From positions 3,840 through 67,839 of the forward strand of contig DASPWU010000186.1 of the NCBI GenBank assembly GCA_035637675.1: 64,000 nucleotides of DNA, read 5' to 3'. Shown one piece after another: positions 8,627 through 30,735 of the stretch. Origin of the DNA: Candidatus Limnocylindria bacterium. Lineage in GTDB: Bacteria; Chloroflexota; Limnocylindria; Limnocylindrales; CSP1-4. The position numbers and the translations under genes are program-made. Each line of letters starts with the position of its first letter. Position 1 is the first letter of the stretch. The notes under the pieces were generated by a model. It was not told the DNA's origin, did no database searches, and worked only from the letters and a program-made list of their open reading frames with translations.

Positions 8627-8629
8627 CGC

Positions 8630-10768: not shown

Positions 10769-10921
10769 TCCGAGACCATCCCACGGGTCCGACGGGCCTT
10801 GGGTACACTGGCGGCCGCGCGGGGAGCTCCCGCCGCGGAGGCGCCGCTGGTGGGCCGCTGCTGCGAGCGACGATACGACCCGCGGCGATCCAGCTTGACC
10901 CGGAGGAGAGACGGCCACCCG

Positions 10922-11503
10922 ATGACCGACCGCGAGCGCGACGCGCCACGCACGGGCCCTGCCGACGACACGGACCGATTCCCGACCCCTCCGGCCAGCC
11001 CGGCGGACGCCGAGGCCGCCGAGGAGGAGGGCCTCGGCGATGGGGCCTTCCTCGATGATGGCTATGAGGAGGACGACGAGAATCTCGCCGAGGCGGAGAT
11101 CGGCGCGGGGGCGGACGAGGAGGTTGATGAGCCCACCGTCGCCACCGCCGGGGCGGTCTCGCGGCGGCTCCGGTTGGGCCAGCGGTTGGGTCGCGGCGAC
11201 GGCACCGCAGCCGGTGCCACCACGGTCACGCCGTCCGAGCGAGCCGTGCGCATCGACGATCGGGCGTCGCAGGTGTTCGTCGTCGGCGTCCTCGCAACCT
11301 TCCTCGGAATTCTCCTGTTCGGGATGCTGTGGGGCGCGGGTGGCTTCTTCACGACCGTGCCAGCCAGCCCGTCTCCGTCGCTTGTCGAGCCAGGCGAGAG
11401 CGCCTCGCCGAGCGCGAGCCTGGTGCCCTCGGCCTCACCGTCCGCCGCCGGCGTATCGAGCACGCCGAGCGCCTCGGCCCCGCCCTCTCCGTCTGGCTCC
11501 TGA
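10922..11503 (+). CDS. Hypothetical acidic low-complexity protein with one TM helix and S/P-rich C-terminal tail
   Basis: D/E-rich N-terminus, TM FVVGVLATFLGILLFGMLWGAGGFF, then SPS repeats. Start chosen at ATG 10922 (the ORF extends upstream to 10799). Confidence 0.45.
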   Translation: MTDRERDAPRTGPADDTDRFPTPPASPADAEAAEEEGLGDGAFLDDGYEEDDENLAEAEIGAGADEEVDEPTVATAGAVSRRLRLGQRLGRGDGTAAGATTVTPSERAVRIDDRASQVFVVGVLATFLGILLFGMLWGAGGFFTTVPASPSPSLVEPGESASPSASLVPSASPSAAGVSSTPSASAPPSPSGS

Positions 11504-11535
11504 GCGACCGCACCGATCGGTATACTCGCCGGGCC

Positions 11536-12624
11536 ATGGCCCATGTCTTCGTCGCGCCGCACCCCGACGATGTCGCGTTGTCGTGCGGCGGACTCATCGC
11601 CGGCCTTCGCGAGATCGGCCAGAACATCACGATCCTGACCGTGTACTCCGGCGCTACCCCGACGGGCGGCCTGTCGACCTACCAGCGTGAGGCACTGGGC
11701 TTTGGCACGAAGACGATCTGGCCGGTGACGGAGGCGTTCAACCGGTCCCACATCGCGGCGGACTATGCGCCTCATGCGGATCCTGTCGCGACCCTTCCGC
11801 CCTGGTCGGCGACCGCGGACCGGCTGGAGGCGACCCAGGCCGACGCGGATGCGGCGGCCAAGCGATTCTGGCAGCGCTCGTCGTGGTACCGGCGGGCGGA
11901 GATCCACAACGTTCCGCTCGGAGGGCAGCCGCTCATCGACGACGAGCCCAATCAGGGCGCGGTCATGACCGACGAATGGATGGACGCGGCCGGGGCCGGT
12001 GAGGCGATGGCGAGCCGGCGCCTGGAGGATGAGCGCTACGCGCTGTTCGCCGAGGCGTCGATCGTGTTTCTGGACCTGCCCGACGCGGTCTTCCGGGGCT
12101 ACGAGGGCGACGCCCAGCTGCTGGGCAGCCCTCGAGATGACGATCCGGCGCCGGTGGACATCCTGCGCCAGGAGATTGCTCGCCTCGAACCCCAGAAGGT
12201 GTACTTCCCGCTGGGTGTCGGCGGCCACGTGGATCACCAGTTGACCCGGGCGGCCGGCCTGGCGCTCCTGGGCGACGATCGACGATGGATCATGCCAGGG
12301 CCCGATTACGCCGGAGTGGTCACCTTCTACGAGGATTTCCCCTACGCCTGGTGGACCAGCTTCTCACGGCTGGAGGACCTGCCGCCCCAGGCCCTGGCGA
12401 ATCTGCCACCGGGCATCTCCCTGTGGCCCGAGTACGCTCCCATCGCCGATCAGATCGAGTACAAGGTGACGGGTGTCCGGCTGTACGCGAGCCAGCTGGA
12501 CCGGCTCTTCGGCGGCGTCCGGCCGATGGCCGACGCGGTCCGCCGGCAGGGCCGGCGGGTGGCCGAGCTGGGCGGGCTGACCGGCGGCTTCGCCGAGCGC
12601 TACTGGACGTCAGTCCGCGTCTGA
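11536..12624 (+). CDS. PIG-L/LmbE-family N-acetylglucosaminyl deacetylase with C-terminal extension
   Basis: MAHVFVAPHPDDVALSCGGLIAG..., the HPDDx zinc-binding signature of LmbE/MshB/PIG-L. A TATACT -10-like element lies 25 nt upstream. Confidence 0.75.
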   Translation: MAHVFVAPHPDDVALSCGGLIAGLREIGQNITILTVYSGATPTGGLSTYQREALGFGTKTIWPVTEAFNRSHIAADYAPHADPVATLPPWSATADRLEATQADADAAAKRFWQRSSWYRRAEIHNVPLGGQPLIDDEPNQGAVMTDEWMDAAGAGEAMASRRLEDERYALFAEASIVFLDLPDAVFRGYEGDAQLLGSPRDDDPAPVDILRQEIARLEPQKVYFPLGVGGHVDHQLTRAAGLALLGDDRRWIMPGPDYAGVVTFYEDFPYAWWTSFSRLEDLPPQALANLPPGISLWPEYAPIADQIEYKVTGVRLYASQLDRLFGGVRPMADAVRRQGRRVAELGGLTGGFAERYWTSVRV

Positions 12625-13451
12625 AGCCTGGCGGGCGGCCAGACGCGACCGTCGCGGAATCCGGGCCGGTTCTGGGGCGTCATGGCCACCAACATCGCCA
12701 GGCCATGGATCCAGAGGATCGGCAGGGCGAGCGTCGACCCCAGGGCGACCGTCCAGCGCCGGTTCGTGCGAGCGCCCCAGGCGACGATCAGCGCTCCGAC
12801 GGCGATACGCAGGAACGTCGAGACGTGGATCGCATTCGGGGCAGGTTCCGCGATCTCGTTCGACGTGAGCACGTGCCTGAGCCACGCCTGCCACAGGTCC
12901 GGCCGGGTAACGAGCGAAACGATGGTGATGCCCGCCGTGACCCCGACAGCGAGTGCCAGGTTGCGCCATTCGCGCCGGACGACGAACCAGACGAGACCGA
13001 CGCCACTGCTGATCTTGGTCAGGAGGACGACGCTCCACGCCCACGGGAACCGGAAGCCGAGCCAGATGGCCAGTGCCAGGAGCAGGTGGATGTTGCCGTG
13101 GTAGATCTCGATGGCGACCGGGGGGAAGGCGAGCCAGGCCAGGCCGTATCTGCCCCCGATGACGAGGAGCGCGGCAATCTGGACGACGAGGTAGACCCAG
13201 AACGCAGAGTCGAACGAGAACGGCTGGAGCGGAAGCGCCAGCCAGGCGGCCGGCGGGGTGTAGTGGAAGTGGCCGATGCCGTACGCGATGGCGTACGGGT
13301 TTCCGGGATCGACGTTCCAGTACGCGAAGAGGTCGAAGCCGTAGCCGCCGCCGACGAGGAGGTAGGCCAGGAGCGCAATGCCGGCAAACGCCAACCCGTC
13401 CAGGATCGGTCCTCGATAGCGCGACCAGGCGTAGGTGCCAAGCTCGGGCAT
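12600..13451 (-). CDS. DUF2029/GT87-like GT-C membrane glycosyltransferase (paralog of 38222..39130)
   Basis: Polytopic; FRFPWAWSVVLLTKISSGVGLVWFVVRREWRNLA closely matches FRWPAAWAFVLLSKVTPGIGLVWFAVRREWRALA in the paralog. Start taken at MPELGTYAW; the ORF extends to 13901. Confidence 0.65.
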   Translation of the reverse strand: MPELGTYAWSRYRGPILDGLAFAGIALLAYLLVGGGYGFDLFAYWNVDPGNPYAIAYGIGHFHYTPPAAWLALPLQPFSFDSAFWVYLVVQIAALLVIGGRYGLAWLAFPPVAIEIYHGNIHLLLALAIWLGFRFPWAWSVVLLTKISSGVGLVWFVVRREWRNLALAVGVTAGITIVSLVTRPDLWQAWLRHVLTSNEIAEPAPNAIHVSTFLRIAVGALIVAWGARTNRRWTVALGSTLALPILWIHGLAMLVAMTPQNRPGFRDGRVWPPARLQTRTDVQ

Positions 13452-13655
13452 CGAGCGGCCAGCGACTCTCGCCTCGGCGTTCAATGGCGTACATTCCCCT
13501 GGCAGTGTTGTGCGGGTGCAACGGTATCCCGTAGGTGGTCGCTCGCGCACCCCACCGATGGGCCGCCCCCCGACCAGTACCAGGGGATGTCGCCGCGCCG
13601 CGCCTACGCCGACGGTACTCTCAGGCCACAGCCCGAGCCTAACCTGCATCTCTAG

Positions 13656-14763
13656 AATGCCGGTCATGCCACCGAGTGTCGCGCCGGGCCCTGCCGCAGG
13701 GGTCGCTTCAGGAGCAACGCCGACGGTCCCGACCGGCCACTGGCGAACGCTGCCGGTCCTGCGCGTCTTCGGCGACTGGGGCCTGGATCTCAGCCTGCGG
13801 ATCGCCGCGACGGTCGCCCTCGTTCTGGCCGTGGCCTGGGTGGTAGGCAATGCCCGACCGTGGGCCACGGACCCGATGGTGTTCATCGCCGACACTTCCA
13901 ACTACTACGCAGCGGGCGAGCGCCTCAACGTCGGCCACTCGCTGTACGCATATGGCCCCGACGACCGGCACGTCCTGGCCCTGCTGTTCGGCCTGCCATC
14001 GCCGTATCTGTACCCGCCGCTGATGGGCGTGCTGTGGCGGCCGGTCGCGGCGCTCCTGCCGTTTGAGCCTGTCGTCATCGCCTTTTGGGCGGCTGGGATG
14101 GCCAGCCTCCTGGGGTTTCTGGTCTGGCTGCTATGGCGCGGTGGCCGGGCGACGGCGGCCGGATGCCTGATTCTGCTCGTGCCGCTCGCCATCACCGCGT
14201 GGTCGGGCAACGTGAGCACGTTCATCGCCATTGCGATCGTGGGCGCCTGGCTGCTCCTCCAGCGAGGTCATAACCGGGCCGCCGGGGCGATCATCGGCTT
14301 CACGACCGTGCTCAAGCTGTCGCCCGTCTTCCTGGGCTGGTGGCTGCTCGTGACGCGGCGCTGGAACGCACTCGCAGTGGGGATCGCTGTCGGGCTCGCG
14401 AGCCTGGCGGTGAGCGTGGCCGGCGCGGGCGTCGCGGCGCACGTGGAGTTTCTGCACGTCGGTGACGCCGCAGCCCGAGGAGGGGGCATCCAGGGCAGCA
14501 TCGTCGGGATTCTCTCGACCATCGGAACGCCGGCGGACGTGCTGCCACTCGTGGCACCGATCGTTTCGGTGGCCGGGCTCGTCTCGGTCTGGGCCCTTCG
14601 ACGTCACGAGCGGGCGGCCTGGGCGGTGGCGATCGCGACAGGCGTCTTCGCCTCTCCGATCTTCAACCTGACCAACGTGACGGTCCTCCTCGCGGCATTC
14701 GTGGCGTTCGACGGCCGCCTGACCGGCAGCGACGAGCCGTGTCCGGCACCGGCAGGCCCGTAA
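13656..14763 (+). CDS. DUF2029/GT87-like GT-C membrane glycosyltransferase
   Basis: Multi-TM; TVLKLSPVFLGWWLLVTRRW motif typical of DUF2029 (PimE-like). A conserved 19-nt motif lies about 40 nt upstream (see findings). Confidence 0.7.
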
Positions 14764-14774
14764 CGACTCCGATC

Positions 14775-16094
14775 ATGTCGAGCGCGGCGGAGATGCACGA
14801 ACCGCGCGAGACGCCGGGCGGCCGGGCCATCGGCCTCGCCGACCGCCTCGTACGCCACCGGGGGCTGATCCTCGTCGCCGCCGCGGGGATCGCCGTCCGA
14901 CTGGTCCTGCTACCCACGGTGGGCGTTCGCGACGATACGGACCTGTTCGCCGGCTGGGTCCACGGGCTGGCCGTGGGCCGGCTCGGTGAGGCCTACCGAC
15001 TGGAGCTCACGTTCCCACCCGTCATGGCATACATCCTGTGGCTGGTGAGCCTGATCCAGCCCGCCTTCCAGACGGCGACCAACGCCGCCGACGCGGCGGT
15101 TCGCATCGCCCTCAAGGCCCCGGCCAGCCTGGCGGACCTGGGCCTGGCCGCGGGCGTCTGGTGGTACCTGCGGACGAAGCCTGGCTGGGCGACGGTCGGG
15201 GCCGCCGCGATCCTGCTCCACCCGGCGGTCATCGACGTCAGTGCCTGGTGGGGCCAGTTCGAGTCGATCTACGTCTTCGCCGGCCTGGCTGCCTTCCTCC
15301 TGGCGGCTGCGGGCCGACCGCGCATGGCGGCCGTCGCCCTGGGGCTCGCGCTCATGACCAAGCCGCAGGCTCTGACGTTCGTCATTCCATTCGCCGCGTG
15401 GTACGTCGGCCGGCACGGCTGGCGAGAGACCGCCATCTGCGGCGCCATCGGCGTCGCCACGATCGCGGTCGTGTGGCTGCCGTTCCTTGCCGATGGCGGC
15501 GTGGGTCGGTACCTGAACACGCTCGAGCACCTCCAGAACGTCGACTTCAGCGTCCTGTCGCTCCGGGCGTGGAACCCGTGGTGGATCCTGCAGAGCGGAG
15601 CCGGGGGCGACTTCCTGAGCGATCGCGGCGCCCTCCTGGGCCCGCTCTCGCCGCGGACGATCGGGCTGGCCCTGTTCGGTCTCCTGGAGGCCGGCATCTT
15701 CGTCGCGGTCCTCCGACGACCGGATTCCCGGACTCTGGCGATCGGCCTGGCGGCGTCGGTGATGGCGGCGTTCATCACGCTGACGACCATGCACGAGCGC
15801 TACGCATACGGGGCGATCGTCTTCCTGGCGCTGCTCCTCCCCGAGCGCCGGCCCCGCTGGCTGTGGGCCGCGCTGTCGGTGGCCTTCACGGCGAACCTCC
15901 TTGCGGCGATCCCGCCACCTCCTCTCCTGGGCGTCATCCCGATCGGCGGTCCGGTCGGGCTCCTGGGGTCTGTGACGATGGTGGCCGTGGCGATCGGTTG
16001 CCTGACGTCGCTGGCCCAGGCGGTCCGGCGGCCAGCCGGTGACTCGTCCCTGGTCGTGACGCCGGCCCGCGTTGCCCGGCGCGGATCCGGGTGA
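14775..16094 (+). CDS. Polytopic membrane protein, probable GT-C glycosyltransferase
   Basis: About 11 TM helices with large loops. Follows a DUF2029 gene and precedes a translationally coupled membrane protein. No named motif recognised. Confidence 0.5.
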   Translation: MSSAAEMHEPRETPGGRAIGLADRLVRHRGLILVAAAGIAVRLVLLPTVGVRDDTDLFAGWVHGLAVGRLGEAYRLELTFPPVMAYILWLVSLIQPAFQTATNAADAAVRIALKAPASLADLGLAAGVWWYLRTKPGWATVGAAAILLHPAVIDVSAWWGQFESIYVFAGLAAFLLAAAGRPRMAAVALGLALMTKPQALTFVIPFAAWYVGRHGWRETAICGAIGVATIAVVWLPFLADGGVGRYLNTLEHLQNVDFSVLSLRAWNPWWILQSGAGGDFLSDRGALLGPLSPRTIGLALFGLLEAGIFVAVLRRPDSRTLAIGLAASVMAAFITLTTMHERYAYGAIVFLALLLPERRPRWLWAALSVAFTANLLAAIPPPPLLGVIPIGGPVGLLGSVTMVAVAIGCLTSLAQAVRRPAGDSSLVVTPARVARRGSG

Positions 16095-17461
16095 CGAACC
16101 CCGCCGTGCTTCGAAGCGTCCTCGACCGATACGCCGGCCGCATCTTCGCGCTGGTCGCGATCGGTGCCTGGGGGTTCCTCATCTGGATGGGACGCGGTCT
16201 CACCTTCTTCAGCGACGAATGGGCATTCATCGAAGGCCGCTCCCTGTTCGATCCCCCCACGTGGTTCGCGCCGCACAACGAGCACTGGTCCACGGTCCCG
16301 ATCGTCGTCTACCGGCTGCTCATGGAGGTGTTCGGGCTGCGGACCTACGTTCCCTACCTCGCGGTTCTCATCGGGCTTCACGTGCTGGCCGCCGCCGCCG
16401 TGTTTCTGCTGCTCCGGCGGTGGACCGGATCGCCGGCGGCGTTGGCTGGCGGAATCCTCGTGCTGTTCTTCGGGAGCGGCTTCGAAAACCTGTTCTGGGC
16501 GTTCCAGATCGCCTCCGTTGCGGCGGTTGCGGCGGGGCTCTGGACGGTCTGGCTCCTCCAGGAGCCGCCCACCGCCGCACGCGCCGGCGCCGTCGTGCTG
16601 CTCCTCGTCCTCAGCCTGGCGACGTCCGGGCTGGCCCTCATCTTTCTCGTCATCGTCACCCTGACGATGCTGCAGCGTCCGGCCTGGCGTCCCTACGCGC
16701 CCGGCCTGGTCGTGCCGGTGCTTGTCTATCTGGTGTGGTATCTCTGGATCGGTGGCACCGGAATCTCGGTGGTGCGGAATCCGTTCTCCCTGGATCAGCT
16801 GCTCCAGGCTCCGTGGTTCGTCGCGGAGGGGGTCGAGAATTCGATCGGCGCGTTGACTGGCCTCAGGCCCGTGTTCTCGGGGATCGTGTTCGTGGGCCTG
16901 GTGCTCGGGCTGCTGGAAGCGGTGGTCCGCGGACACCGCGTGCCCGTTCCGACGATCGCGCTGACCTTCGGGCTCATCCTGCAGTACGCGCTGATCGCGG
17001 TGGTCCGGGCGGGCGTCACCGTCGGTCAGTCGGGCTACACCCGGTACACCTATCTCGGCGGGATCCTGGCCCTGCTCGCCATCGCGGCGATGGCGGGGTC
17101 GATTCCGCTGCCGGCCGCGCCTGTGCGCAGGAGGGCCCTGTTCGTGGGCGCGACGCTGGTCCTGGAGGTCGCTCTCGTCTTCAACCTGCAGTTGCTCGTC
17201 GCCGGTCGTGACTTCTTCCTGGTCCGGGCCCAGTTCACCCGGGCACTCATCAGCGCCAGCCTGGCCGAGACGCCACCCGACGGGGTGGATCCGTCCCGTT
17301 CGCTGGTGATCGTTCCGTCACCCGAGTCGCTCCGCCGGATCGAAGCCGCCTATGGCCTGCCACTCACCGACAGCCTGGCCCTGGACGCGGTGCAGCCGGC
17401 GCCGGCCTGGATCGTGCACCTCGCCGATCTCCGCCTCCGGGGATTCGGGGTGGGGCCGTGA
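16091..17461 (+). CDS. Conserved polytopic membrane protein, unknown family (paralog of 23644..25032)
   Basis: Shares WMGRGLTFFSDEWAFIEGRSLFDPPTWFAPHNEHW...LRTYVPY...LVLFFGSGFENLFWAFQI with the paralog (about 60% identity). GTG start overlaps the upstream stop (GTGA). Confidence 0.7.
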   Translation: MTNPAVLRSVLDRYAGRIFALVAIGAWGFLIWMGRGLTFFSDEWAFIEGRSLFDPPTWFAPHNEHWSTVPIVVYRLLMEVFGLRTYVPYLAVLIGLHVLAAAAVFLLLRRWTGSPAALAGGILVLFFGSGFENLFWAFQIASVAAVAAGLWTVWLLQEPPTAARAGAVVLLLVLSLATSGLALIFLVIVTLTMLQRPAWRPYAPGLVVPVLVYLVWYLWIGGTGISVVRNPFSLDQLLQAPWFVAEGVENSIGALTGLRPVFSGIVFVGLVLGLLEAVVRGHRVPVPTIALTFGLILQYALIAVVRAGVTVGQSGYTRYTYLGGILALLAIAAMAGSIPLPAAPVRRRALFVGATLVLEVALVFNLQLLVAGRDFFLVRAQFTRALISASLAETPPDGVDPSRSLVIVPSPESLRRIEAAYGLPLTDSLALDAVQPAPAWIVHLADLRLRGFGVGP

Positions 17462-17508
17462 CCGGTCTGCGCGGTGATCGTCCCGGTACAGCGTCCGGTT
17501 CCCGCCCC

Positions 17509-18285
17509 TCAAGCCACCGGTGACCGGCGCCGGAAACGTTTACCCAGGCGTCGAAATCGGCCCCGGATCGCCACGGCGTACCAGCGCAGGTACTCCGGCA
17601 GCCACTTGCGAAGCCGGAAGTTGCTCTGCCCGGACGTCCGGTCGCGCCACGTCGTGGGGACCTCTGCCATCGGGCGGCCGGCGAGGGTCGCCTTGACCGT
17701 GAGCTCGAGGGCCAACTCGAATCCGGCCCGGCTCTCGATGGTCACGCTGTCCAGGAAGGCCCGGCGGTAGAGCCGGAAGTTGCTCGTCGCGTCGTGAACG
17801 GGCACGCCCGCGAACCAGTGCAGGCTGAGACCCGCCAGCCGGCTCATCAACGCCTTCAGGCGGGGTCCACCAACCTGCCGGCCGCCGCGCATATACCGGC
17901 TGCCTGCCACGACGTCCGCGCCGGCCCGGGCGAGGGCGACCATCCGCTCGACCACCTCGGGCTGGTCGGACCCGTCCGCCATCGTGACCAGCACATACTC
18001 GCCCCGCGCCGCCGCGAGCCCGGCGCGCAGCGCGTTCAGGACGCCCCGGCCGATATCGTTGCGCAGGCCGCGAACGGCGGGCAGCTCGACCGCGAGGCCG
18101 GCCAGGACGGGCACGGTCGTATCGCCCTCGAAGTCATACACGACGAGGGTCTCATGGGGGGTGGTGAGCGACGCCTCGAGCGCCCGAAGGACCGCGGCCA
18201 CCGCCTCCCCCTCGTTATAGACCGGCACGACGATGGACAGCTCGGGCAGCTTGGGCGTCGCCGGCGTGTTCGCCCGGGGGGTCAC
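17509..18285 (-). CDS. GT2 polyprenol-phosphate glycosyltransferase (Ppm1/GtrB-like)
   Basis: LSIVVPVYNEGEAV...VVYDFEGDTT...VTMADGSDQPE...DATSNFRLYRR. GTG start overlaps the methyltransferase stop (GTGA). The table ORF 17509..19239 is a readthrough into the next gene's region. Confidence 0.8.
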   Translation of the reverse strand: MTPRANTPATPKLPELSIVVPVYNEGEAVAAVLRALEASLTTPHETLVVYDFEGDTTVPVLAGLAVELPAVRGLRNDIGRGVLNALRAGLAAARGEYVLVTMADGSDQPEVVERMVALARAGADVVAGSRYMRGGRQVGGPRLKALMSRLAGLSLHWFAGVPVHDATSNFRLYRRAFLDSVTIESRAGFELALELTVKATLAGRPMAEVPTTWRDRTSGQSNFRLRKWLPEYLRWYAVAIRGRFRRLGKRFRRRSPVA

Positions 18286-18938
18286 GCCGGGCGCTCGCCC
18301 ACGTACAGCGTCTGCTTGCCCATGAGCCACCAGGCCGGCGGAAAGGCGAGGTAGGCGCGGACGAGGGCGGGGTGCTGGGGGAGCCGGCTCTTGGTCGTGT
18401 ACGGCAGGAACCGGGTCACGAGCGCGTGGGTCCGGAAGCCGGCGGTCAGGGCCGCCTCCTCGAGGCTGCGCTCCGTGAGCGGCACCTTGTGGTCGATGAA
18501 GTCCCAGTAACCGCCCCCGATCAGCCGGACATTGGGCTGGAGGACGATGACCCGGCCGCCCGGCCGGAGGACCCGATGGACCACCCGCAGTTGGTCCACG
18601 ACCGCGTCTCGCGAGGGAAGGTGCTCCAGGTAGTTGCTCATGAACGCCGTTCCGAAGTAGTCGGCCGGAACGGCCTCGTCCAGGGCGAGACCGTCCGCTC
18701 GTATGAAGCGGATGTCCGGCGGCAGGGACTCGCCCGGGTCGCGCAGGTCGGTGGCCCATCGTTCGAACTGCGGGACCTGACGGATGAAGTAGCCAAGGTC
18801 GCAGCCGATGTCGATCACCGGTCCGTCGACCATGTAGCGCCGAAGGTATTCTGCGATCGGCGGCCAGATCCGTTCCTTCGACGCGCGGTGGCGTTCGGGG
18901 AACCGCCTGGCGTAGACGCTGTCGAGATCGTCCGTCAC
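18282..18938 (-). CDS. Class I SAM-dependent methyltransferase
   Basis: VIDIGCDLGYF ... RVLRPGGRVIV methyltransferase motifs I and post-I. In a separate frame within the 576-aa readthrough ORF. Confidence 0.8.
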   Translation of the reverse strand: MTDDLDSVYARRFPERHRASKERIWPPIAEYLRRYMVDGPVIDIGCDLGYFIRQVPQFERWATDLRDPGESLPPDIRFIRADGLALDEAVPADYFGTAFMSNYLEHLPSRDAVVDQLRVVHRVLRPGGRVIVLQPNVRLIGGGYWDFIDHKVPLTERSLEEAALTAGFRTHALVTRFLPYTTKSRLPQHPALVRAYLAFPPAWWLMGKQTLYVGERPA

Positions 18939-19960
18939 AAGCGACCGGCCTCGAGCTCGGCGCGGATCCAGGGGATGACCTCATCGAGCATCGATTCGAG
19001 CGTCGTCTCCGCCTCGAAGCCGAGCACCTCGCGGGCCTTGCGGACGTCCGGCACCCTGAGCTGGACGTCGTGCTCGAACGGGGGGTCCGAGATCGTCCGG
19101 AAGGGCCGGTCCGGGCCGTGCACCTTTCGCCAGATGACCTCCGCCAGCTGAAGGACCGTCGTCGACGTCGCCGTCGACAGGTTGAAGTCCTCGTTGACCG
19201 CGCGATCGGATTCCATCGCCAGTCGGATGCCCTGGGCAAGATCGCCGCCGTACGTGTAGTGGCGGACCTGGTCGCCCGCTCCCAGGATATGGAGCGGATC
19301 CTGGCCTTTGAGCACCTTCAGGACGAGGTCCGGCACGACGTGGGACAGGGCGAGCTTCACGTTGCCGCTCATGATGTCCGTGTCGCGAGCTGCCCGCCGT
19401 TCGCCGATTCCGACGCAGTTGAAGGGGCGGACGATCGTGTAGGGCAGCTGGTACTGCTCCCAGGCGCCCTTGGCAAAGAACTCAGAGGCGAGCTTCTGGA
19501 AGCCGTAGGTGGACACCGGCGGCGGGCTCGTGAGCTCGGCGCCCTCCGGCGTGGGGAAGACGGTCGCCGACTCGTACACCATCGAGCTGCTCATGACGAC
19601 GATCCGCTCGAGGTGGCCATCCCGATGAGCGGCGATCGCCGCATCGAACGTGGCAGCCAGGATTCGCTCGTTCTCGGCCAGCAGGTCGTAGGCGAACTGA
19701 TGGAAATAGCTGATCCCGCCGATCATCGCGGCGGCCGCGACGACCTGGTCGCAGTCGGCAGCAAGCTCGCGCAGGAGCGACACGTCCTTTGCGTCGCCCT
19801 GCACGAACCGATAGCGCGGATGGTCGTCGTAGCTCTTGGCCAGCGGGCCGTACTTGCTGAAGTCGTCGATCCCGACGACTTCGTAGCCGGCTTCCAGGAG
19901 CTCCGGCACGAGATAGCCGCAGATGAAGCCCGCCGCCCCTGTGACGAGGATCCGGCTCAA
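18935..19960 (-). CDS. NAD-dependent nucleotide-sugar epimerase/dehydratase (SDR)
   Basis: ILVTGAAGFICGYLV Rossmann motif and YxxxK region. TTG start overlaps the stop of the upstream dehydrogenase (TTGA). The table ORF extends to 20236. Confidence 0.8.
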   Translation of the reverse strand: MSRILVTGAAGFICGYLVPELLEAGYEVVGIDDFSKYGPLAKSYDDHPRYRFVQGDAKDVSLLRELAADCDQVVAAAAMIGGISYFHQFAYDLLAENERILAATFDAAIAAHRDGHLERIVVMSSSMVYESATVFPTPEGAELTSPPPVSTYGFQKLASEFFAKGAWEQYQLPYTIVRPFNCVGIGERRAARDTDIMSGNVKLALSHVVPDLVLKVLKGQDPLHILGAGDQVRHYTYGGDLAQGIRLAMESDRAVNEDFNLSTATSTTVLQLAEVIWRKVHGPDRPFRTISDPPFEHDVQLRVPDVRKAREVLGFEAETTLESMLDEVIPWIRAELEAGRL

Positions 19961-21174
19961 AGGCGGATCCCGTCCCCCATGACGTTCCAGACGTCGACCA
20001 CATCGCGGCCGCCGAGCTGCAGGCCCCGATACGCGCGATGCGGCGCGCCGAGGACGAGGATCTCGCTCTCGGCGATCACCTGGTCGAGAGGCACCAGGCG
20101 GTCGTCGGGCACATATGGATCGGTGCACAGGACCTGCGCACCTGCCCAGGTCAGGAGCTTGCGCAGCTTGTAGCTGAGCGACGCCCGCATGTCGTCCGAC
20201 TCCGCCTTGAAGGCCATACCCAGGATGCCGATGCATCTACCGCGCAGGCCGCCATACCGGCGGTCGAGGGCGGACACGATGTAGGCCGGCAAGCCCTCGT
20301 TGACCTGCATGGCGGCCTGGCCCATCGGGAAGTGGTCGGTCGTGAACGCAGCCAGCTGCATGGCGTCCTTGAACAGGCACGGGCCGGCCGCGAAGCCCGG
20401 TCCGGGCAGGTCCGTTGCGCGGGGGTAGTCCTGGCGGATCGCCCGCAGGACGTTGGTGTAGTCGATGCCCGCCTGGTGGGCAATCATGAAGAACTGGTTG
20501 GCGACGGCGAACTTCATGTAGCGCCACGTGTTCGTGAACAGCTTGGCCAGCTCCGCCTCGCGGCTGCTCACCCGGACGATCTTGGTCCCCAGCCGCGTGA
20601 ACAGCTCGGACGCCCGGTCGCCCGACCGCTCGTCGTCCGCGCCGACGATCTGGGGCAGGCTGCCGAGCTCCTCGAGGGCGTGGCCTTCGGCGATGCGCTC
20701 CGGGCAGTAGGCGAGGTCGACCGCCAGGCCGCGGTCCGCGAGCGCCTGGGCGACGAAGGCCGTCGTGCCCGGATAGACCGTGCTCCGCAGCACGACGAGC
20801 ATGCCGTCCCGGAGATAGGGGCCGACCTGGTCGACGGCCTGCTGGAAGACGGTCATCGATGGCGCCAGGAACTCATCGACCGGCGTGCCGATGACGATCA
20901 CGATCGCGTCTGCCTGGCGGACGATCCCAGGCTCGGCCGAGGCAACGAGGCGTCCCGTGGGCAGCATCTCGCGCAGCAGCTCGTCGGCGCCGGATTCCAT
21001 GAACGGCATCTCGCCGGCTGTGATCCGCTCGACGGTGGCCGCGTTCGTGTCGAAGATTCCGACTCGCAGCCCGGCCCGTGCGAGAACGAGGCTCAATGGC
21101 AGGCCGACGTGGCCGCCGCCGCCCAGGACCACGACGTCCAACGCGCCCCCGGCCGCCCCCGGATCCACGGTCAT
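19957..21174 (-). CDS. UDP-sugar 6-dehydrogenase family (UDP-ManNAc/UDP-Glc/GDP-Man dehydrogenase)
   Basis: VVVLGGGGHVGLPL NAD motif and the catalytic GPGFAAGPCLFKD. Start at MTVDPGA; the table ORF extends to 21300. Confidence 0.85.
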   Translation of the reverse strand: MTVDPGAAGGALDVVVLGGGGHVGLPLSLVLARAGLRVGIFDTNAATVERITAGEMPFMESGADELLREMLPTGRLVASAEPGIVRQADAIVIVIGTPVDEFLAPSMTVFQQAVDQVGPYLRDGMLVVLRSTVYPGTTAFVAQALADRGLAVDLAYCPERIAEGHALEELGSLPQIVGADDERSGDRASELFTRLGTKIVRVSSREAELAKLFTNTWRYMKFAVANQFFMIAHQAGIDYTNVLRAIRQDYPRATDLPGPGFAAGPCLFKDAMQLAAFTTDHFPMGQAAMQVNEGLPAYIVSALDRRYGGLRGRCIGILGMAFKAESDDMRASLSYKLRKLLTWAGAQVLCTDPYVPDDRLVPLDQVIAESEILVLGAPHRAYRGLQLGGRDVVDVWNVMGDGIRL

Positions 21175-21298
21175 GCGGCGAGCAGTGCCGGCGGGATGCC
21201 GCCCGTCAGGATGCGGAGCGCGATCTTGGACATCGCCGGACATGCTACCAGCCGGCGGCGCAGCACCGGGCGGCTCCGGTCGGGCAAGATACAGCCTC

Positions 21299-23701
21299 AT
21301 GGTCGAGCGGATGAAGGCTGGGCGGTCGCGTGCCGCCGCATTGGGCTCGGTGCTCCAACGCCGACCGTGGCCCGTCTACCTCGTCCTGGCCCTCCTGGCG
21401 TTCCCGATCCTGGAAATGCTCGTGGCCGGCGACCGCGCCGTCGAGTACGCCCATGACGTCTTCGACGACGACGTGCCGCGTCTGTTCTCCATTGCGTCGG
21501 ATTGGAAGGCGTTCGGGCCACACTTGTGGGATCCGCACCTGACCGCCGGCAACGCCCTCCTCGCCCACTTCGCGTTGCCGCCGTCCACCCCGGATGTGCT
21601 CTTGAGCTTCATCGTTCCGCCGTTCGCCGCGTACGTCATCAACGCAACGCTCATGGCATTCGTGGCGGGCCTGGGCATGCACCTGTTCCTGCGCGACTCG
21701 CTGCGGCTGCCGGGGGTGGCCTGCTTCGCGGGCGGCGTCCTCGCCGCGCTTTCGTTCTGGCATTACATCTATGGCTACGGGGCGCTCGTCCTACCGCTCC
21801 TGCTGTGGAGCGCTGACCGCGCCCTGGCCGGCGGGACCGTGCCACGGCGGCGGGTCGTCTGGGCGATTGCTGTGGTCTGGTTCGCGCTGCTGTCGAGCCA
21901 GATCCAGCTTGTCGTGATCGGGGGCGCGGCGACCCTGGCCTACGTGCTGGCAACGGCCGAAGGAATCCGGGCATGGCCCGGGCGGATCGCGCGGCTGGCC
22001 ACGATCTGGGGCGTGGCTGCTCTGCTCGCGGGACCCATCCTGATCACCCAACTCGCCGCCATCCCGGACTCCCATCGCGCCATCTGGGATCTCGCCTACC
22101 TCACCGGGCCCCTCGGACTCGCCGTCCGGAATGCCGGACTCCTGTACGGCTCGGTGGCAATCGGCCTGCCGGTTACCGCCGATGTCGGCGGGTCCGCCGC
22201 GGTCTACGGCAGCTTCTTCCCCGGCGCCATCGCGTTGCCCCTCCTGGCGTTCTCGCTCGTCGTGCCGCGGCGGTCCGCCCGGGAACGCGCCGTGCTTGCC
22301 ATCCTCGTCGCGATCCCGGTCATCGACCTTTTGGCGATCCTGGGCATGCCCATCCAGGACCACCTCGGGGTCCTGCGGACCTTCCAGTTCGTCCGCATTC
22401 GTCACCTGCTCCCAGTCCTGGTCGCGATGAACGTCGCGGTCGCCGTGGCCTTCGTGGTCCGCTCGGACCCGAGCCATGCCCTCTCGCGAAGGCGGTGGTT
22501 GGCGGCCAGCGTGCTCGTCGCCCTGGCCGCAGCAGCGCTGGCGTGGCAGGGCGTCGTTGCGTTCCGGCATGTGCTACGACCGACGTCCCGCGCACTCGTC
22601 CAGATCGGCTGGGACCTTTCCTTCCTGGCCCTGGCCGGCGGCTTCGCGATCCTGTGCTTCGGGGCGTTGCTGGCGTTGCGGCGGCGGGGCGAGTGGCGCA
22701 CCACCGGCCTCCTGTCAGTGGGGCTGGCGGCCATGCTCGTCGTCGGCCTCGCGACCGAGCGCCTCGCGTACGCTCGGGCGGAAAGAGATCTGGACGGGAA
22801 CCTGGGCAGCTGGGCGGCAAACCTCGCGCCGACGAGTGGCCACGAGTACATCGCCGCACGAGTGGCCGAGGGACGTGACGGCCGGGTCCTGTCGGTAGGC
22901 GAGCATGCGAACCGGGCCCTGGCGGCCGGGCTGGACACGGTCGACGGCTACGTGATGATCTACCCGCTTCGCTACCACGAGCTGTTCGGGGTGCTGATCG
23001 GGCCGCACCTGGCGATCGATGCCGCCCGCGCGGCGTACTACAACGGCTGGGGCAACCGGGCGTATGCCTTCGGACCCGAGCTCAACTGGCCGGTTGCCGA
23101 CCTCCTGGGGACTCGCTGGCTGTACGTCCGCGGCCAGACACTGTCCGGGCCAGGGCTCGTCGCGCGCCATCGCGACGGTGACATCACGGCGTACGAGAAC
23201 ACCGATGCGTTCCCGCGCGCGTTCGTCGTGCACGAGGTGCGTCTGCTCGAATCGCGGCCGGCGCTGGTTGCTGCGCTGGGTGCGGCGACCGCCGATGACC
23301 TTCGCGCGACGATGTACCTTGCGGCCGCCGACGCCGGCGGCCTGAGCCTGCCGGGAGGCCCACCGGACGCCGCCGACCGAGCCACGATCGTGACCGATAC
23401 GCCGGACCGGGTGGTAGTCGCGTCGCGAGCGCAGCGGCCCGGGGCGCTCGTCCTGGCGGATACGTTCGAGGCGGGCTGGGTGGCCGACGTGGACGGCACG
23501 GCCGCGACGATCGTGCCGGCCTACGATGCCCTGCGCGGCGTTGCGATCCCCGCCGGCGAGCACACGGTCACATTCACGTATCGGCCGGCAGCCACGCTGG
23601 CTGGCGTCGCCCTTGCCCTTTTGACCGCGGTCACCCTTTCGGCGTGGGCCGTTGGGTGGTCGCGATTGTCCCTGGCAGCGACGCGGACCCGGCGACGGTG
23701 A
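21299..23701 (+). CDS. YfhO-family GT-C membrane glycosyltransferase
   Basis: Many TM helices, then a C-terminal periplasmic beta-domain (YENTDAFPRAFVV...HTVTFTYRP) typical of YfhO. The table ORF starts at 20885 but overlaps the opposite-strand dehydrogenase; ATG 21299 chosen. Confidence 0.75.
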   Translation: MVERMKAGRSRAAALGSVLQRRPWPVYLVLALLAFPILEMLVAGDRAVEYAHDVFDDDVPRLFSIASDWKAFGPHLWDPHLTAGNALLAHFALPPSTPDVLLSFIVPPFAAYVINATLMAFVAGLGMHLFLRDSLRLPGVACFAGGVLAALSFWHYIYGYGALVLPLLLWSADRALAGGTVPRRRVVWAIAVVWFALLSSQIQLVVIGGAATLAYVLATAEGIRAWPGRIARLATIWGVAALLAGPILITQLAAIPDSHRAIWDLAYLTGPLGLAVRNAGLLYGSVAIGLPVTADVGGSAAVYGSFFPGAIALPLLAFSLVVPRRSARERAVLAILVAIPVIDLLAILGMPIQDHLGVLRTFQFVRIRHLLPVLVAMNVAVAVAFVVRSDPSHALSRRRWLAASVLVALAAAALAWQGVVAFRHVLRPTSRALVQIGWDLSFLALAGGFAILCFGALLALRRRGEWRTTGLLSVGLAAMLVVGLATERLAYARAERDLDGNLGSWAANLAPTSGHEYIAARVAEGRDGRVLSVGEHANRALAAGLDTVDGYVMIYPLRYHELFGVLIGPHLAIDAARAAYYNGWGNRAYAFGPELNWPVADLLGTRWLYVRGQTLSGPGLVARHRDGDITAYENTDAFPRAFVVHEVRLLESRPALVAALGAATADDLRATMYLAAADAGGLSLPGGPPDAADRATIVTDTPDRVVVASRAQRPGALVLADTFEAGWVADVDGTAATIVPAYDALRGVAIPAGEHTVTFTYRPAATLAGVALALLTAVTLSAWAVGWSRLSLAATRTRRR

Positions 23702-25032
23702 CCGCCGGTCGGATATTCGCTGTGATCGCGGTGGCCGCCTGGGCGGTCCTCGTCTGGATGGGCCGAGGCCTCTCGTTCTACAGCGACGAGTGGTACTACA
23801 TCGAGGGCCGCTCGCTGTTCGATCCGGCAACCTGGTTCCCGCCCCACGGCGAACACTGGGCAACGGTTCACGTCGTCCTCTTCCGATCGATCATGGAGCT
23901 GGTCGGGCTGCGAACGTATGTCCCATACCACGCGGTCCTCATCGGGCTGCACGTTCTCGTTGCGGCAGGTGTCTTCGCGCTCCTGAGACGGTGGGCCGGA
24001 CCACTCTTTGCGCTCGCCGGCGGAACCCTGGTCCTCTTCTTCGGCAGCGGCTTCGAGAACCTGTTCTGGGCGTTCCAGATCATGTTCGTGGGCACGATCG
24101 CTCTCGGGATCTGGACGATCTGGTTGCTGGAAGGACCGCCGTCGATGCGGCGAACCGCGGCCGTCGTGACACTCCTGACGATCTCGCTCGCAACGTCGGG
24201 GCTGGGCCTGATCTTCTGGGCCATCACCGGGCTCACGATGTTGCTCCGGCCCGGATGGCGTCGGTGGCTGCCTGCCCTGGCGCTGCCGGCATTCGTCTAC
24301 CTCGTCTGGTACGTCGCCGTCGGGCACGCCGGGACCGGCTCCCAGCGAAACCCATTTACCGTCGACCAGCTCCTGCTCACGCCAGGGTTCGTGGCCGAGG
24401 GCGTCGGACACTCGATCGGGTCGATCACCGGGTTGCCACCGATCCTGGCCGGACTGCTGGGGGGCGCGCTCCTGATTGGCCTCGTGGTCGGCGCGATCCG
24501 CCGCTGCCCCATCCCGGTACCGACGATCGCCCTGACCTTCGGTGTCATCCTCCAATACACGCTGATCGGCCTCAGCCGGGCGGGGATCTTTGCGGGCCAG
24601 TCCGACTACACCCGATACACCTATCTGGGGGGCATCCTCACGCTCCTGGCGATCGGCGCGATGGCCGGGACGCTGCGGATGCCCACGGGATTGGCGGCGC
24701 GGCGCGCCGTCCTCCTGGCGGCGGTCGTCATCCTCGTCCCGGCCGCGATCCTCAACGTGCAGCTGCTCGTCGCCGGGCGGGATCTGTTTGCGGTTCGGGC
24801 GGAGTTCACCCGGGCCCTCATCGCCGACGCGCTGGCCCCACAGCTTCCCCCCGACGTGGACCCCGACAAGTCCCTCTTCTTCGTGCCCTCGCCCAACGCG
24901 CTCAAGCGGATCGAGGCGCGCTACGGCATGCCGCTGACCGACATTCTGGTCCCGGACGCCGTCCCGCCGACGTCGCCTCGCATCAAACGGCTCGCCGACG
25001 AGCGATTCCACGGCGCCGAGGTGGGGCCGTGA
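23644..25032 (+). CDS. Conserved polytopic membrane protein, unknown family (paralog of 16091..17461)
   Basis: See 16091. The alternative GTG start at 23698 overlaps the YfhO stop (GTGA), mirroring the arrangement at 16091. Confidence 0.7.
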   Translation: MGRWVVAIVPGSDADPATVTAGRIFAVIAVAAWAVLVWMGRGLSFYSDEWYYIEGRSLFDPATWFPPHGEHWATVHVVLFRSIMELVGLRTYVPYHAVLIGLHVLVAAGVFALLRRWAGPLFALAGGTLVLFFGSGFENLFWAFQIMFVGTIALGIWTIWLLEGPPSMRRTAAVVTLLTISLATSGLGLIFWAITGLTMLLRPGWRRWLPALALPAFVYLVWYVAVGHAGTGSQRNPFTVDQLLLTPGFVAEGVGHSIGSITGLPPILAGLLGGALLIGLVVGAIRRCPIPVPTIALTFGVILQYTLIGLSRAGIFAGQSDYTRYTYLGGILTLLAIGAMAGTLRMPTGLAARRAVLLAAVVILVPAAILNVQLLVAGRDLFAVRAEFTRALIADALAPQLPPDVDPDKSLFFVPSPNALKRIEARYGMPLTDILVPDAVPPTSPRIKRLADERFHGAEVGP

Positions 25033-25053: not shown

Positions 25054-26127
25054 CTACGCCCGGGCCATCGCTCCCGCCTGCTCGCGGCCCGCCAGGATCG
25101 ACGCGATCGTGGCCGTACCGGCGAGGACGATCGCGGCGAGGACGGGGCTGACGATCACGACGATCGGCAGGCCGATCGCCATGGCGACCGCCGCCCGGCG
25201 GTCCACCGTCCACAGGAAGATGACTCCGGGAATGAGCAGGGCCGCGTAGTTGAGGCCGATCGTCGGCTGGGCGAGCTGCGTCATCGCCAGGGCGACCACG
25301 GCGGCCGCTCGCTCATCCAGGCGGACCGCGGCCGCCGCGGTCCAGGCGTAGGCGATGGCGATGCCGACCACCCCGGCCAGCGGCGAGATCGCCGACAGCC
25401 CAAGGTTGCCGGTGAACGGAGCCGCGAGGACGGCGCTCTTTGGCAGTGCCTCGAGGTATTCGAAATACCGGCCCGGACCCAGCAGCACGGCGAAGACGAC
25501 CGTCGTCGCGAGACCGGCCAGGAACGTCCGTCCGAACGACGTGCGGCGGCGGAGAAGCAGCCAGGCGAGGTACGGTCCGATCGCCGGCTTGAAGGCGATG
25601 GCGCACGTCACGCCCAGCGCGCCGCTTCCCGCCCAGCCGGGCTCTGCCAGTGACAGGGCCGCCGCCGCCGCGAAGAACAGCATGACGTTTCCGAGCGCCA
25701 CATCATGGACGGCCGGTGAGGACGTCACCGCTGCGACGGCCACCGCGGCGGCGACCGGCCACCCGGCCCCACAGCGGCGGGCGAGGAGGGCAACCGCGCC
25801 GGCGAGGGCCACGAGCTTGACGATCGCGAACGACTCGGCCGTGAGCCCGGTCGACCAGACGGCCGCCAGGGGCGGGGGATAGAAGTAGGAGAAGTGCCCC
25901 TGCGAGTGAATGTCCTGGAGGTCCGGGTGAGCCGACCATGGGTAGAGAGGCGCTCCGGTGCGAAGCGCGTCGGCTGCCACCGCATACGCACGCCAGTCGT
26001 CCGCGCGCTCGAGCAAGAGGACCGGCACGACCGCGACGGCCACGATCGCCAGGGCGATGCCGATCGCGAGCGCAAGCAGGAGCTGGAGTGGGCGCGGCCA
26101 GGAATCGGAAGCGAGCGCCCTGATCAT
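25054..26127 (-). CDS. DUF2029/GT87-like GT-C membrane glycosyltransferase
   Basis: CAIAFKPAIGPYLAWLLLRRR motif; polytopic. Confidence 0.65.
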   Translation of the reverse strand: MIRALASDSWPRPLQLLLALAIGIALAIVAVAVVPVLLLERADDWRAYAVAADALRTGAPLYPWSAHPDLQDIHSQGHFSYFYPPPLAAVWSTGLTAESFAIVKLVALAGAVALLARRCGAGWPVAAAVAVAAVTSSPAVHDVALGNVMLFFAAAAALSLAEPGWAGSGALGVTCAIAFKPAIGPYLAWLLLRRRTSFGRTFLAGLATTVVFAVLLGPGRYFEYLEALPKSAVLAAPFTGNLGLSAISPLAGVVGIAIAYAWTAAAAVRLDERAAAVVALAMTQLAQPTIGLNYAALLIPGVIFLWTVDRRAAVAMAIGLPIVVIVSPVLAAIVLAGTATIASILAGREQAGAMARA

Positions 26128-26963: not shown

Positions 26964-28037
26964 CTACCCGCTTTGGCTCCCGATGCGCCAGCCCGATCGG
27001 ATGGGTTCCGTGTCCGCGGGCGAGCGCCGGGGGCGGATGAGCAGGGCGACGGCGAGCACGACCGCCCCGGAGACGGGGTAGAGCTGGCCGCCGATGATCA
27101 TCGTTACGGCCGCGAAGATCGCCAGCACCGGCGCCGCGGCCCAGAAGGACGGCAGGCCCGCCAGAAACGGCAACCCCGCGTAGCCGCCGGCATACGGTGC
27201 GAGGAAGATGCCGGCGATCGTCGCCCAGACGAGGCTGGTGAGCTGGTCCCTGCGGAGGAGCACGACCAGGAAGCCCATCCCGACGAGAATGCCGACGGCG
27301 ATCGCGAGCGGGACGGACACGAGGGTCAGGCTCGTGTTGCCCACGAAGGCCGGGCCGACACCGCCGCCGGACGCCAGCAGCGAGGCAAATGCCGCGTACG
27401 CTCCCGGCCCAGCGATCAGCAACGCGGTGAGCGTCGTTCCCGCCGCCCCAGCCACGATGCCCACGAATGCCTGCCGGCGCCAGACCAGCGCCCAGAGGAC
27501 GAACGGCGCGAGGAGCGGCTTGGGAAAGGCCGCTCCCAGGACCCCGAGCAGGAGGCCGTTGATCGGGCGATCGCCGCGGACGACCAGGAGCATCCCGAAG
27601 GTGAGCGCCACCGTGACGTTGGCCAGCAGGAGATCGGCGATGACAGGCTGGAACAGCAGGACGCAGGGAAGGGCAGCGGCCGCGGCCCACCACGGGGCGG
27701 GCGAGGTCGACCAGCGGGTCGCGATCGCGACGAGACCGACCTCCAGGGCCAACCAGGCGACGATGGCCGCCGGGCCGCCTAGCGCCGCAAACGGCACGGC
27801 CATGATGGTCGCCGCCGGTGCGTAGAGGTAACCGGGAATGGTGTAGGGGTCGCCGCCGCGCTGCCAGGTGGCGGCGGCGTCGAGCAATCGCAGGCCGTCG
27901 AGGCCGAACCAGCCACCGGGCGTGAACAGGGTCTGCTGAGCGAGCAGGAATGCGATCCCCCCGGCCGCCGCGAGGATCCCGACGATCGCCCATGCAACGA
28001 CCGCCCAGCGGTCCCTCAGCCAGTCGCCCGCAGCCAT
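26964..28037 (-). CDS. DUF2029/GT87-like GT-C membrane glycosyltransferase
   Basis: LGAAFPKPLLAPFVLWALVWRR motif; polytopic. Confidence 0.65.
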   Translation of the reverse strand: MAAGDWLRDRWAVVAWAIVGILAAAGGIAFLLAQQTLFTPGGWFGLDGLRLLDAAATWQRGGDPYTIPGYLYAPAATIMAVPFAALGGPAAIVAWLALEVGLVAIATRWSTSPAPWWAAAAALPCVLLFQPVIADLLLANVTVALTFGMLLVVRGDRPINGLLLGVLGAAFPKPLLAPFVLWALVWRRQAFVGIVAGAAGTTLTALLIAGPGAYAAFASLLASGGGVGPAFVGNTSLTLVSVPLAIAVGILVGMGFLVVLLRRDQLTSLVWATIAGIFLAPYAGGYAGLPFLAGLPSFWAAAPVLAIFAAVTMIIGGQLYPVSGAVVLAVALLIRPRRSPADTEPIRSGWRIGSQSG

Positions 28038-29242: not shown

Positions 29243-29309
29243 GGTCGTCCGGTCGACCGGATTGGAGCACGGATCGAAGCTTTGATCGAGGCTGGGTCGA
29301 AGGCTCATC

Positions 29310-30566: not shown

Positions 30567-30735
30567 GCCCGCGAGGATAGCACCGGCTCCCCGAGACAGT
30601 TGCTGACGCAACGGATGATGAGCGACCCGCGGCCTGGCGCACGGTACCGCGACACATGGGACCTCCGGGCCCCTCCCTCGTGCCGGAGCGGGCCTGTACC
30701 ATCGTCGGGCAGTCTCAGGAGGGTCTCGGTACATC

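Follow-up and report, generated by a model that had tools for sequence, protein, structure and literature searches.

A candidate family of GT-C glycosyltransferases without a sequence model, present as two paralogues in an envelope-glycan island of a Limnocylindria genome

Introduction

Glycosyltransferases of the GT-C fold share a conserved core of seven transmembrane (TM) helices plus two juxtamembrane helices (JM1 and JM2), and the catalytic Asp of PimE, ALG6, ArnT and PglB is located at the tip of JM1 (PMC12041525). Extracytoplasmic glycosylation by a GT2 enzyme, a flippase and a GT-C enzyme acting together is an established scheme, which includes the GT136 systems (Kelly et al., 2024; PMC11127046). 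In this work, we analyzed a stretch of 64,000 nt from Candidatus Limnocylindria bacterium (assembly GCA_035637675.1, contig DASPWU010000186.1, positions 3,840 to 67,839; hereafter, the window), which carries two genes, X1 and X2, encoding paralogous membrane proteins of a family that an earlier note on this DNA could not recognize. Our results indicate that the X proteins are divergent members of the GT-C superfamily, and we estimate a probability of roughly 70% that they are catalytic GT-C glycosyltransferases using a polyprenyl-phosphate sugar, which constitute a large family without a sequence model.

By structure, the best matches of the X proteins are ArnT (GT83) and mycobacterial AftB which, like X, are N-in, multi-span proteins with an acidic residue starting the first juxtamembrane helix. 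In contrast to X, which has about 11 TM helices and a small outer C-terminal domain, these enzymes have a large periplasmic domain; moreover, they display no detectable sequence similarity to X, whose hosts are Chloroflexota. Genes for a sugar dehydrogenase, an SDR enzyme and a small GT2 lie near X, a setting reminiscent of the Ugd/ArnA/ArnC/ArnT logic of the Arn pathway. A second group of relatives comprises GT87/PimE, ALG6 and PIG-M/Gpi18, the family of U1, a protein encoded directly upstream of X1. This group shares with X a profile homology in which the Asp of the first extracytoplasmic loop is aligned, although X1 and X2 have no GT87 or ALG6 match in Pfam; the X model ranks ArnT, AftB and STT3 above ALG6/PimE, whereas U1 ranks ALG6/PimE first, and X has its own set of invariant motifs (DEW, PHxEHW, GSGFENLFW and N365/R373/R384).

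As for gene organization, the GtrABC, CsbB/GtcA/YfhO, PgfS/PgfE/PgfM1/PgfM2 and GT136 systems resemble the gene cassette around X in having a small GT2 (ArnC/PgfS/PpgS-like in the cassette), an epimerase and a GT-C enzyme, and the Streptococcus Pgf system also has two GT-C proteins. Unlike these three-component systems, the cassette has GT-C proteins of other sequence families, no flippase was found among its scanned neighbors, and it includes a PIG-L deacetylase, a methyltransferase and a sugar 6-dehydrogenase as additional components; its hosts are Chloroflexota, known here from metagenome-assembled genomes (MAGs) only. Polyprenyl-P-GalNAc pathways in which deacetylation is lipid-linked, namely those of mycobacterial PpgS/Rv3779 and Francisella FlmF2/NaxD/FlmK, combine a GT2 that synthesizes the lipid-sugar with a deacetylase and a GT-C enzyme. 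The cassette resembles them by analogy only, PpgS being among the NCBIfam matches of its GT2, and differs from them in its PIG-L-type deacetylase and in having two GT-C proteins rather than one. A search of the literature on Limnocylindria glycosyltransferases yielded nothing relevant.

Results

Paralogy of X1 and X2, and extent of the family

X1 (16091..17458) and X2 (23644..25029) were aligned by BLASTP over 442 residues with 61% identity, 74% positives and no gaps (E 1e-170), far above what shared TM composition would give. Two blocks, WMGRGL[TS]F[FY]SDEW..IEGRSLFDP.TWF.PH.EHW and LVLFFGSGFENLFWAFQI, are shared by both proteins, and they map to invariant columns of an alignment of 40 homologues (G34, G36, D42, E43, W44, R50, W58, P61, H62, E64, H65 and W66 in the first; G128, G130, F131, E132, W136 and Q139 in the second); therefore, the likeness is specific and not a matter of TM composition. 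Both the paralogy and the motif blocks proposed in the earlier note thus hold. The two open reading frames (ORFs) are coding by third-position GC, in a window of ~70% GC.

The same note had each gene starting with a GTG that overlaps the stop codon of the upstream gene as GTGA. This is the case for X1, whose GTG (16091-16093) overlaps the TGA of U1 (16092-16094); at X2, the GTGA is located at 23698-23701, whereas the GTG at 23644 that had been taken as the start is a different in-frame codon, with an overlap of 58 nt with the upstream ORF. The candidate GTG starts of X2 are 23644, 23656 (the public gene call, 458 residues) and 23698, and the N-termini of its orthologues are too variable to choose among them.

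No Pfam or NCBIfam match was obtained for X1, and X2 matched PTPS_related alone, at E 0.29. Searches of PDB sequences with X, by phmmer and with the family profile, were empty at E <= 10, and no Pfam domain was found over the X region in the family members scanned; in the absence of a usable match for X1 or X2, the family is indeed an unrecognized one. Individual members displayed sporadic weak matches below threshold, all of them to GT-C-type families (GT87 at 4e-6, DUF6057, PTPS_related and STT3), including weak PF09594 (GT87) matches in 2 of 40 members.

In a profile search of 1.84 billion representatives, the X family amounted to 4,758 clusters (50% identity) at E <= 1e-3 and to 2,060 at E <= 1e-30. 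The GTDB genomes harboring it belong overwhelmingly to Chloroflexota (Limnocylindria/Limnocylindrales, 'Chloroflexia' MAGs, Anaerolineae and Thermomicrobiales), with remote members in Acidimicrobiales and Solirubrobacterales, and the family is concentrated in soil and freshwater Chloroflexota, some members being from Actinomycetota. Many representatives are 550-640 residues long and end in an additional domain that contains a conserved Cys, whereas the 450-residue form that is paired with U1 lacks the extra domain, of ~130 residues, of the ~600-residue stand-alone homologues. These distant homologues are found alone beside dxs, eno, uvrA, a 3-hydroxyisobutyrate-dehydrogenase-like gene and other unrelated genes, which indicates that the X family is not an obligate partner of another GT-C protein.

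In the longer subfamily (~550-660 residues), the C-terminal domain also shows a PDLG..W.VRL motif, and its genes often occur alone beside housekeeping genes; examples, with loci and representatives designated by L and P numbers, respectively, are L053 (5956-7797), L056 (5719-7644), L062 (1111-3093), L073 (5788-7689) and representatives P0137-P0266. A further architecture was observed in the metagenome representative P0243 (1304 residues), a fusion of Wzy_C, an S-adenosylmethionine (SAM) methyltransferase and an X domain (residues 745-1092), which constitutes a Rosetta-stone link of X to methylation and surface-glycan assembly.

Predicted fold, topology and candidate catalytic residues

AlphaFold2 (AF2), given an alignment of 40 sequences, produced a model of X1 with a predicted local distance difference test score (pLDDT) of 91 and a predicted TM-score (pTM) of 0.92. 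Its top 21 PDB matches in Foldseek are almost all GT-C enzymes, the exception being the GT-C-like PIG-U. The best were ArnT (5f15, E 9.7e-4, query TM-score (TMq) 0.52; also 5ezm) and AftB (9dlf, TMq 0.49), and further matches included STT3 (in several oligosaccharyltransferase structures), Pmt4, Pmt1-2, AftD and PglB, with probabilities of up to 1.00 in the top ranks; by contrast, non-GT-C matches (transporters including MATE/MFS, and G-protein-coupled receptors) remained below a probability of 0.15. From the helices of the model and from where Arg and Lys lie in the sequence, X1 is predicted as an N-in/C-out protein with 11 TM helices and an outer C-terminal domain of ~65 residues, in which TM1 is followed by two short helices (41-49 and 68-81) and then by TM2 onwards. 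The N-terminal part of this arrangement, a polytopic module whose first outer loop holds juxtamembrane helices, is proper to the GT-C fold, with which the Foldseek and hhalign matches agree.

The model and the positive-inside analysis place the D42-E43-W44 triplet outside the cytoplasm, in the loop that follows TM1, where it opens the first of the two short helices; D42 thus provides X with the conserved acidic residue near the JM1 tip that is typical of GT-C enzymes. D42 is invariant in two alignments of 40 sequences each, a shallow and a deep one (28-38% identity to X1), while in the latter E43 and W44 are each retained in 90% or more of the sequences. In the model, D42-E43 occupies the usual GT-C catalytic position and is the candidate catalytic pair. 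Further invariant polar residues are clustered in the outer loops (R50, H62, E64, H65, E132, Q139, R318, Y319, N365, R373 and R384).

The fold assignment is accompanied by remote sequence homology. When the profiles of X and U1 were compared with hhalign, the deep X profile gave a probability of 86.7% (E 4.3e-6) over 298 columns from TM1, with D42 of X aligned to the invariant D66 of U1, and with the motif pairs GFENLFW/GQFESIY and YTRYTY/HERYAY in register; a shallower X profile gave 57%. Together with the GT-C fold and the location of D42 at the catalytic position, this homology to U1 argues that X is a divergent GT-C protein, and speaks against its being a flippase, a small accessory protein or a regulator of chain length.

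The PIG-L, U1 and X cassette

The 11-43 kb region of the window is unusually rich in GT-C genes (six of GT87 type, U1, X1, X2, a DUF6044/YfhO gene and a PIG-V/PMT_2-like gene), therefore, adjacency to a GT-C gene is by itself weak evidence here and what counts is its conservation across genomes. Two GT2 genes and two methyltransferase genes are also present, and positions 12600-41653 constitute a large envelope-glycan island (Table 1).

Table 1. Features of the window discussed in the text (positions refer to the window).
Feature	Position	Strand	Description
PIG-L-family de-N-acetylase	11329..12624	+	Pfam PIG-L 5.4e-13; first gene of the PIG-L, U1, X order
GT87-type gene	12600-13901	-	
GT87-type gene	13435-14763	+	
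U1	14739..16094	+	ALG6/PimE/PIG-M-type GT-C ('Gpi18-like mannosyltransferase'), directly upstream of X1; true start probably a little downstream of 14739
X1	16091..17461	+	456 aa, 11 TM helices; GT-C-fold family without an existing sequence model
X1 D42-E43 codons	16214-16219	+	
GT2	17509..18285	-	258 aa, Pfam Glycos_transf_2; resembles polyprenyl-phosphate sugar synthases; convergent with X1
SAM methyltransferase	18282..18938	-	218 aa, Pfam Methyltransf_23 3.1e-9; also in L081, L083 and L085
NAD-dependent sugar epimerase/dehydratase (SDR)	18935..19960	-	Pfam Epimerase 1.2e-38
Nucleotide-sugar 6-dehydrogenase	19957..21174	-	Pfam UDPG_MGDP_dh N, central and C; NCBIfam TIGR03026 272 bits, above cut-off
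U2	21299..23701	+	800-aa DUF6044 membrane protein, YfhO-like C-terminal 50 aa
Inserted segment	21338..23703	+	~2,366 nt relative to U2-less lineages; short flanking repeat GTG(A)CCGCCG; creates the U2/X2 overlap
X2	23698..25032	+	Paralogue of X1; 444 aa if the start is at the GTGA overlap
X2 D-E codons	23785-23790	+	
GT87-type gene	25054-26127	-	
GT87-type gene	26964-28037	-	
GT4 (PIG-A-like)	28064-29308	-	
FemAB/Mig-14-like acyltransferase	29310-30734	-	
PIG-V/PMT_2-like gene	37036-38214	-	
GT87-type gene	38222-39295	-	
GT87-type gene	40532-41653	-	

U1 is unambiguously a GT-C protein, as the earlier note had supposed for the upstream partner of X1. Its Pfam matches are borderline (ALG6_ALG8 at 24.8 bits and GT87 at 20.6 bits), its homologues are annotated as Gpi18-like mannosyltransferase, PF03155 or PF09594, and its AF2 model (pLDDT 89) retrieved ALG6 (6snh, TMq 0.66), PimE, GPI-MT-I and ALG3 in Foldseek.

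Synteny was assessed in 79 genome loci, with the close loci and those with enough flanking sequence as denominators. The order conserved in Chloroflexota is PIG-L, U1 and X, facing an operon of opposite orientation in which the sugar dehydrogenase is followed by the epimerase, the methyltransferase and the GT2; in the window, two GT87 genes are located between the PIG-L gene and U1. Among the close loci with enough flank, U1 immediately precedes X in 41 of 44, and the GT2 operon is found on the downstream side in 39 of 41. PIG-L is present upstream in 59 of the 71 loci with enough upstream flank, whatever their similarity. Furthermore, the stop codon of U1 and the start codon of X overlap by 4 nt in ~22 related genomes, and the linkage of X to an upstream GT-C gene is therefore a conserved trait in the case of U1.

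Frame splits of the U1, X, PIG-L and dehydrogenase genes were observed in many loci from 'MFD' long-read MAG assemblies (e.g., L026, L052, L055, L061, L068, L070 and L071), which most likely correspond to indel errors and not to pseudogenes; they reduce the apparent synteny counts. In some Chloroflexia MAGs (L010, 5862-8417; L011, 5865-8420; L009, 7469-8578), X is followed by a GT87-type gene of the same orientation, and in L011 the other strand additionally carries an ORF with a weaker resemblance to X (8417-10417); the extra GT87-type genes indicate that the cassette gains and loses GT-C genes between lineages.

Regarding the facing operon, the best NCBIfam matches of the GT2, all below their cut-offs, are AglJ, dolichyl-P-hexose transferase, ArnC, PgfS and PpgS, from which a polyprenyl-phosphate specificity may be inferred. 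The SDR epimerase matched several NCBIfam models, including LegB, GalE, RmlB, TviC and UXS-like ones, all below their cut-offs. The dehydrogenase gene is divergent from U2/X2.

Insertion of U2 at the 5' end of X2

The partner upstream of X2, which the earlier note had named YfhO, is mainly a DUF6044 protein (Pfam 1.2e-28); its last 50 residues are YfhO-like, with a match that is below the Pfam cut-off (6.4e-6), and it also matches NCBIfam PgfM1 and PgfM2 weakly. Its start is at ~21299 rather than 20885, in agreement with the public gene call of 800 residues.

The arrangement of a DUF6044/YfhO gene followed by X2 was found in 0 of the 79 genome loci; it was seen only on contigs matching the window (L083 and L084), L087, which has a truncated upstream ORF, being a probable further case. 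X2 orthologues in four other lineages, L001, L081/L082, L085 (75% identical) and L086, are directly divergent from the dehydrogenase gene, with no GT-C gene upstream. The orthologue of L086 (P0011) starts with MVEHMDAGWSRAA followed by GRIFAV, while U2 of the window starts with MVERMKAGRSRAA followed by ALGS, and X2 resumes with ..VTA followed by GRIFAV. In an alignment of window positions 21160-21345 and 23650-23760 with L086 (2655-2850), the intergenic region between the dehydrogenase gene and X2 of L086, along with the first 13 codons of the latter, corresponded to window positions 21160-21337.

By these comparisons, the ~2,366-nt segment containing the DUF6044/YfhO body is best read as an in-frame insertion after codon 13 of X2 in this lineage, a deletion in the other lineages being less parsimonious. 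U2 appears to have taken over the former promoter region, the start codon and the first 13 codons of X2, which would now restart at or near the U2 stop codon. The insertion thus accounts for the GTGA coupling at X2, which does not reflect an ancestral module of a GT-C gene plus X. X2 itself is read as an older duplicate. The repeated module that had been deduced from the two gene pairs is not general, its second copy being the outcome of a recent, lineage-specific insertion.

A 632-residue protein encoded in L081 was considered as a relocated U2 and was rejected (BLASTP E 0.17).

Discussion

We propose that X1 and X2 are catalytic GT-C enzymes supplied with a lipid-linked sugar by the facing operon, and with respect to catalysis, type of donor, acceptor and order of steps we infer the following scheme. 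The dehydrogenase, the SDR enzyme, the methyltransferase and the Dpm1/ArnC/PpgS-like GT2 would make a modified sugar and load it onto polyprenyl phosphate at the cytoplasmic face; the lipid-linked sugar would then be flipped across the membrane by a flippase, and X would transfer it at the outer face to an envelope glycan or glycolipid acceptor. D42, with E43, may act as the catalytic base, while the conserved Arg, His and Tyr residues of the outer loops may bind phosphate. X and the co-translated U1 would act either one after the other or side by side, each with a residue or linkage of its own to add, and the PIG-L-type deacetylase may prepare the donor or the acceptor.

Several observations weigh against this proposal. 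No known GT-C sequence family (Pfam GT87, ALG6_ALG8, PMT/PMT_2, STT3, YfhO, DUF6044 and PTPS_related; NCBIfam) scored above threshold for X1 or X2. GT-C-like folds may be non-catalytic, and PIG-U is among the fold matches of X1. The NCBIfam matches of the GT2 are all far below the curated cut-offs, and Pfam scans of the neighbors in the conserved cassette revealed no flippase of the GtrA, MATE or SMR families.

If correct, the proposal would provide several thousand 'hypothetical' membrane proteins with a testable GT-C function and a candidate catalytic pair, D42/E43. Further, the conserved cassette with PIG-L, two GT-C proteins and a lipid-sugar supply points to an uncharacterized envelope glycoconjugate pathway in largely uncultured bacteria. 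What is new is a sizeable family without a sequence model inside the well-known GT-C superfamily, which is useful for annotation and as an entry to the envelope glycobiology of Chloroflexota; it represents no new kind of machinery, nor is it mechanistically surprising, as it adds to the joint scheme of GT2 and GT-C enzymes already known from extracytoplasmic glycosylation.

X could instead be a GT-C-fold partner in an obligate hetero-oligomer with U1, either as a catalytically dead scaffold or acceptor-binding subunit resembling PIG-U of the GPI transamidase, or in a pair of the Pmt1-Pmt2 or EmbA-EmbB type. The conserved adjacency of the two genes and their 4-nt overlap suggest stoichiometric co-expression, and the absence of the ~130-residue C-terminal domain from the paired subfamily, as well as PIG-U among the fold matches, is also in line with such a complex. 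However, a dead scaffold is at odds with an invariant Asp at the catalytic position accompanied by many conserved polar residues in the outer loops, and an obligate U1 partner is at odds with the X2 orthologues that have no adjacent GT-C gene (L001, L081, L082, L085 and L086) and with the solitary distant homologues, for which reasons we consider this explanation unlikely. The same observations disfavor the accessory subunit suggested in the earlier note. Among the options offered there, a second catalytic partner is the favored one insofar as X itself has a GT-C fold with an Asp-Glu pair, but obligate partnering is not supported, as family members stand alone.

A more ambitious interpretation, speculative and quite doubtful in our judgment, is that the cassette represents a bacterial pathway resembling that of glycosylphosphatidylinositol (GPI), in which GlcNAc on a lipid carrier would lose its N-acetyl group and would then be elongated at the outer face; X would found a new CAZy GT-C family performing a step for which no bacterial counterpart has been characterized, possibly forming an obligate heterodimer with U1. 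The components for this would be the PIG-L deacetylase, the PIG-M/Gpi18/ALG6-like U1, X and the operon supplying polyprenyl-P-sugar, beside the PIG-A-like GT4 and a dozen further GT-C genes.

It is rather improbable that X is a polymerase or ligase of the Wzy/WaaL type acting on polyprenyl-diphosphate-linked glycans. The Wzy_C domain of P0243 and the large glycan-assembly island around X1 and X2 would agree with such a role; nevertheless, a fusion to Wzy_C implies a function distinct from that of Wzy_C, the fold matches include no Wzy, WaaL or SEDS structure and the confident ones are all GT-C enzymes with polyprenyl-P/-PP donors, and the conserved neighbor of X is a small Dpm1/ArnC-like GT2, which is typical of monophosphate donors.

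Finally, a role of X as the missing lipid-linked-sugar flippase or as a chain-length regulator, which had also been suggested for it and which the lack of a recognizable flippase gene in the conserved cassette would favor in the first case, has hardly any likelihood given its 11-TM GT-C fold with an invariant acidic pair at the catalytic position, its lack of similarity to GtrA, MOP/Wzx and SMR (ArnE/F) proteins and the low fold probabilities of MATE/MFS transporters, Wzz-type regulators being proteins that span the membrane twice and carry a large coiled coil in the periplasm.

Additional genes in and around the island

The scheme proposed for X includes a flippase, which was also sought among ORFs of the window at 10799-11690 (+), 30736-31572 (+) and 34040-34864 (-), and in a gene of L085 encoding 222 residues, all of which had no Pfam match. 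The second and third of these ORFs have a coding-like third-position GC, whereas the first was not flagged by this measure; equivalents of the three were found on related contigs (L081, L084 and L085). In related lineages, a gene for a membrane protein of 612-632 residues with no Pfam match is located between the epimerase and dehydrogenase genes (L081, 4035-5933, and L085, 13877-15715, both on the minus strand) and is absent from the window. Two genes for MFS fusion proteins flank the island: one at 8630-10768 (+) encodes a 712-residue protein with DUF5317 and MFS_3 domains, and the other at 31569-33965 (-) a 798-residue protein with MFS_1 and a C-terminal spermine/spermidine-synthase-like domain. 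Either of them could be a candidate exporter or flippase.

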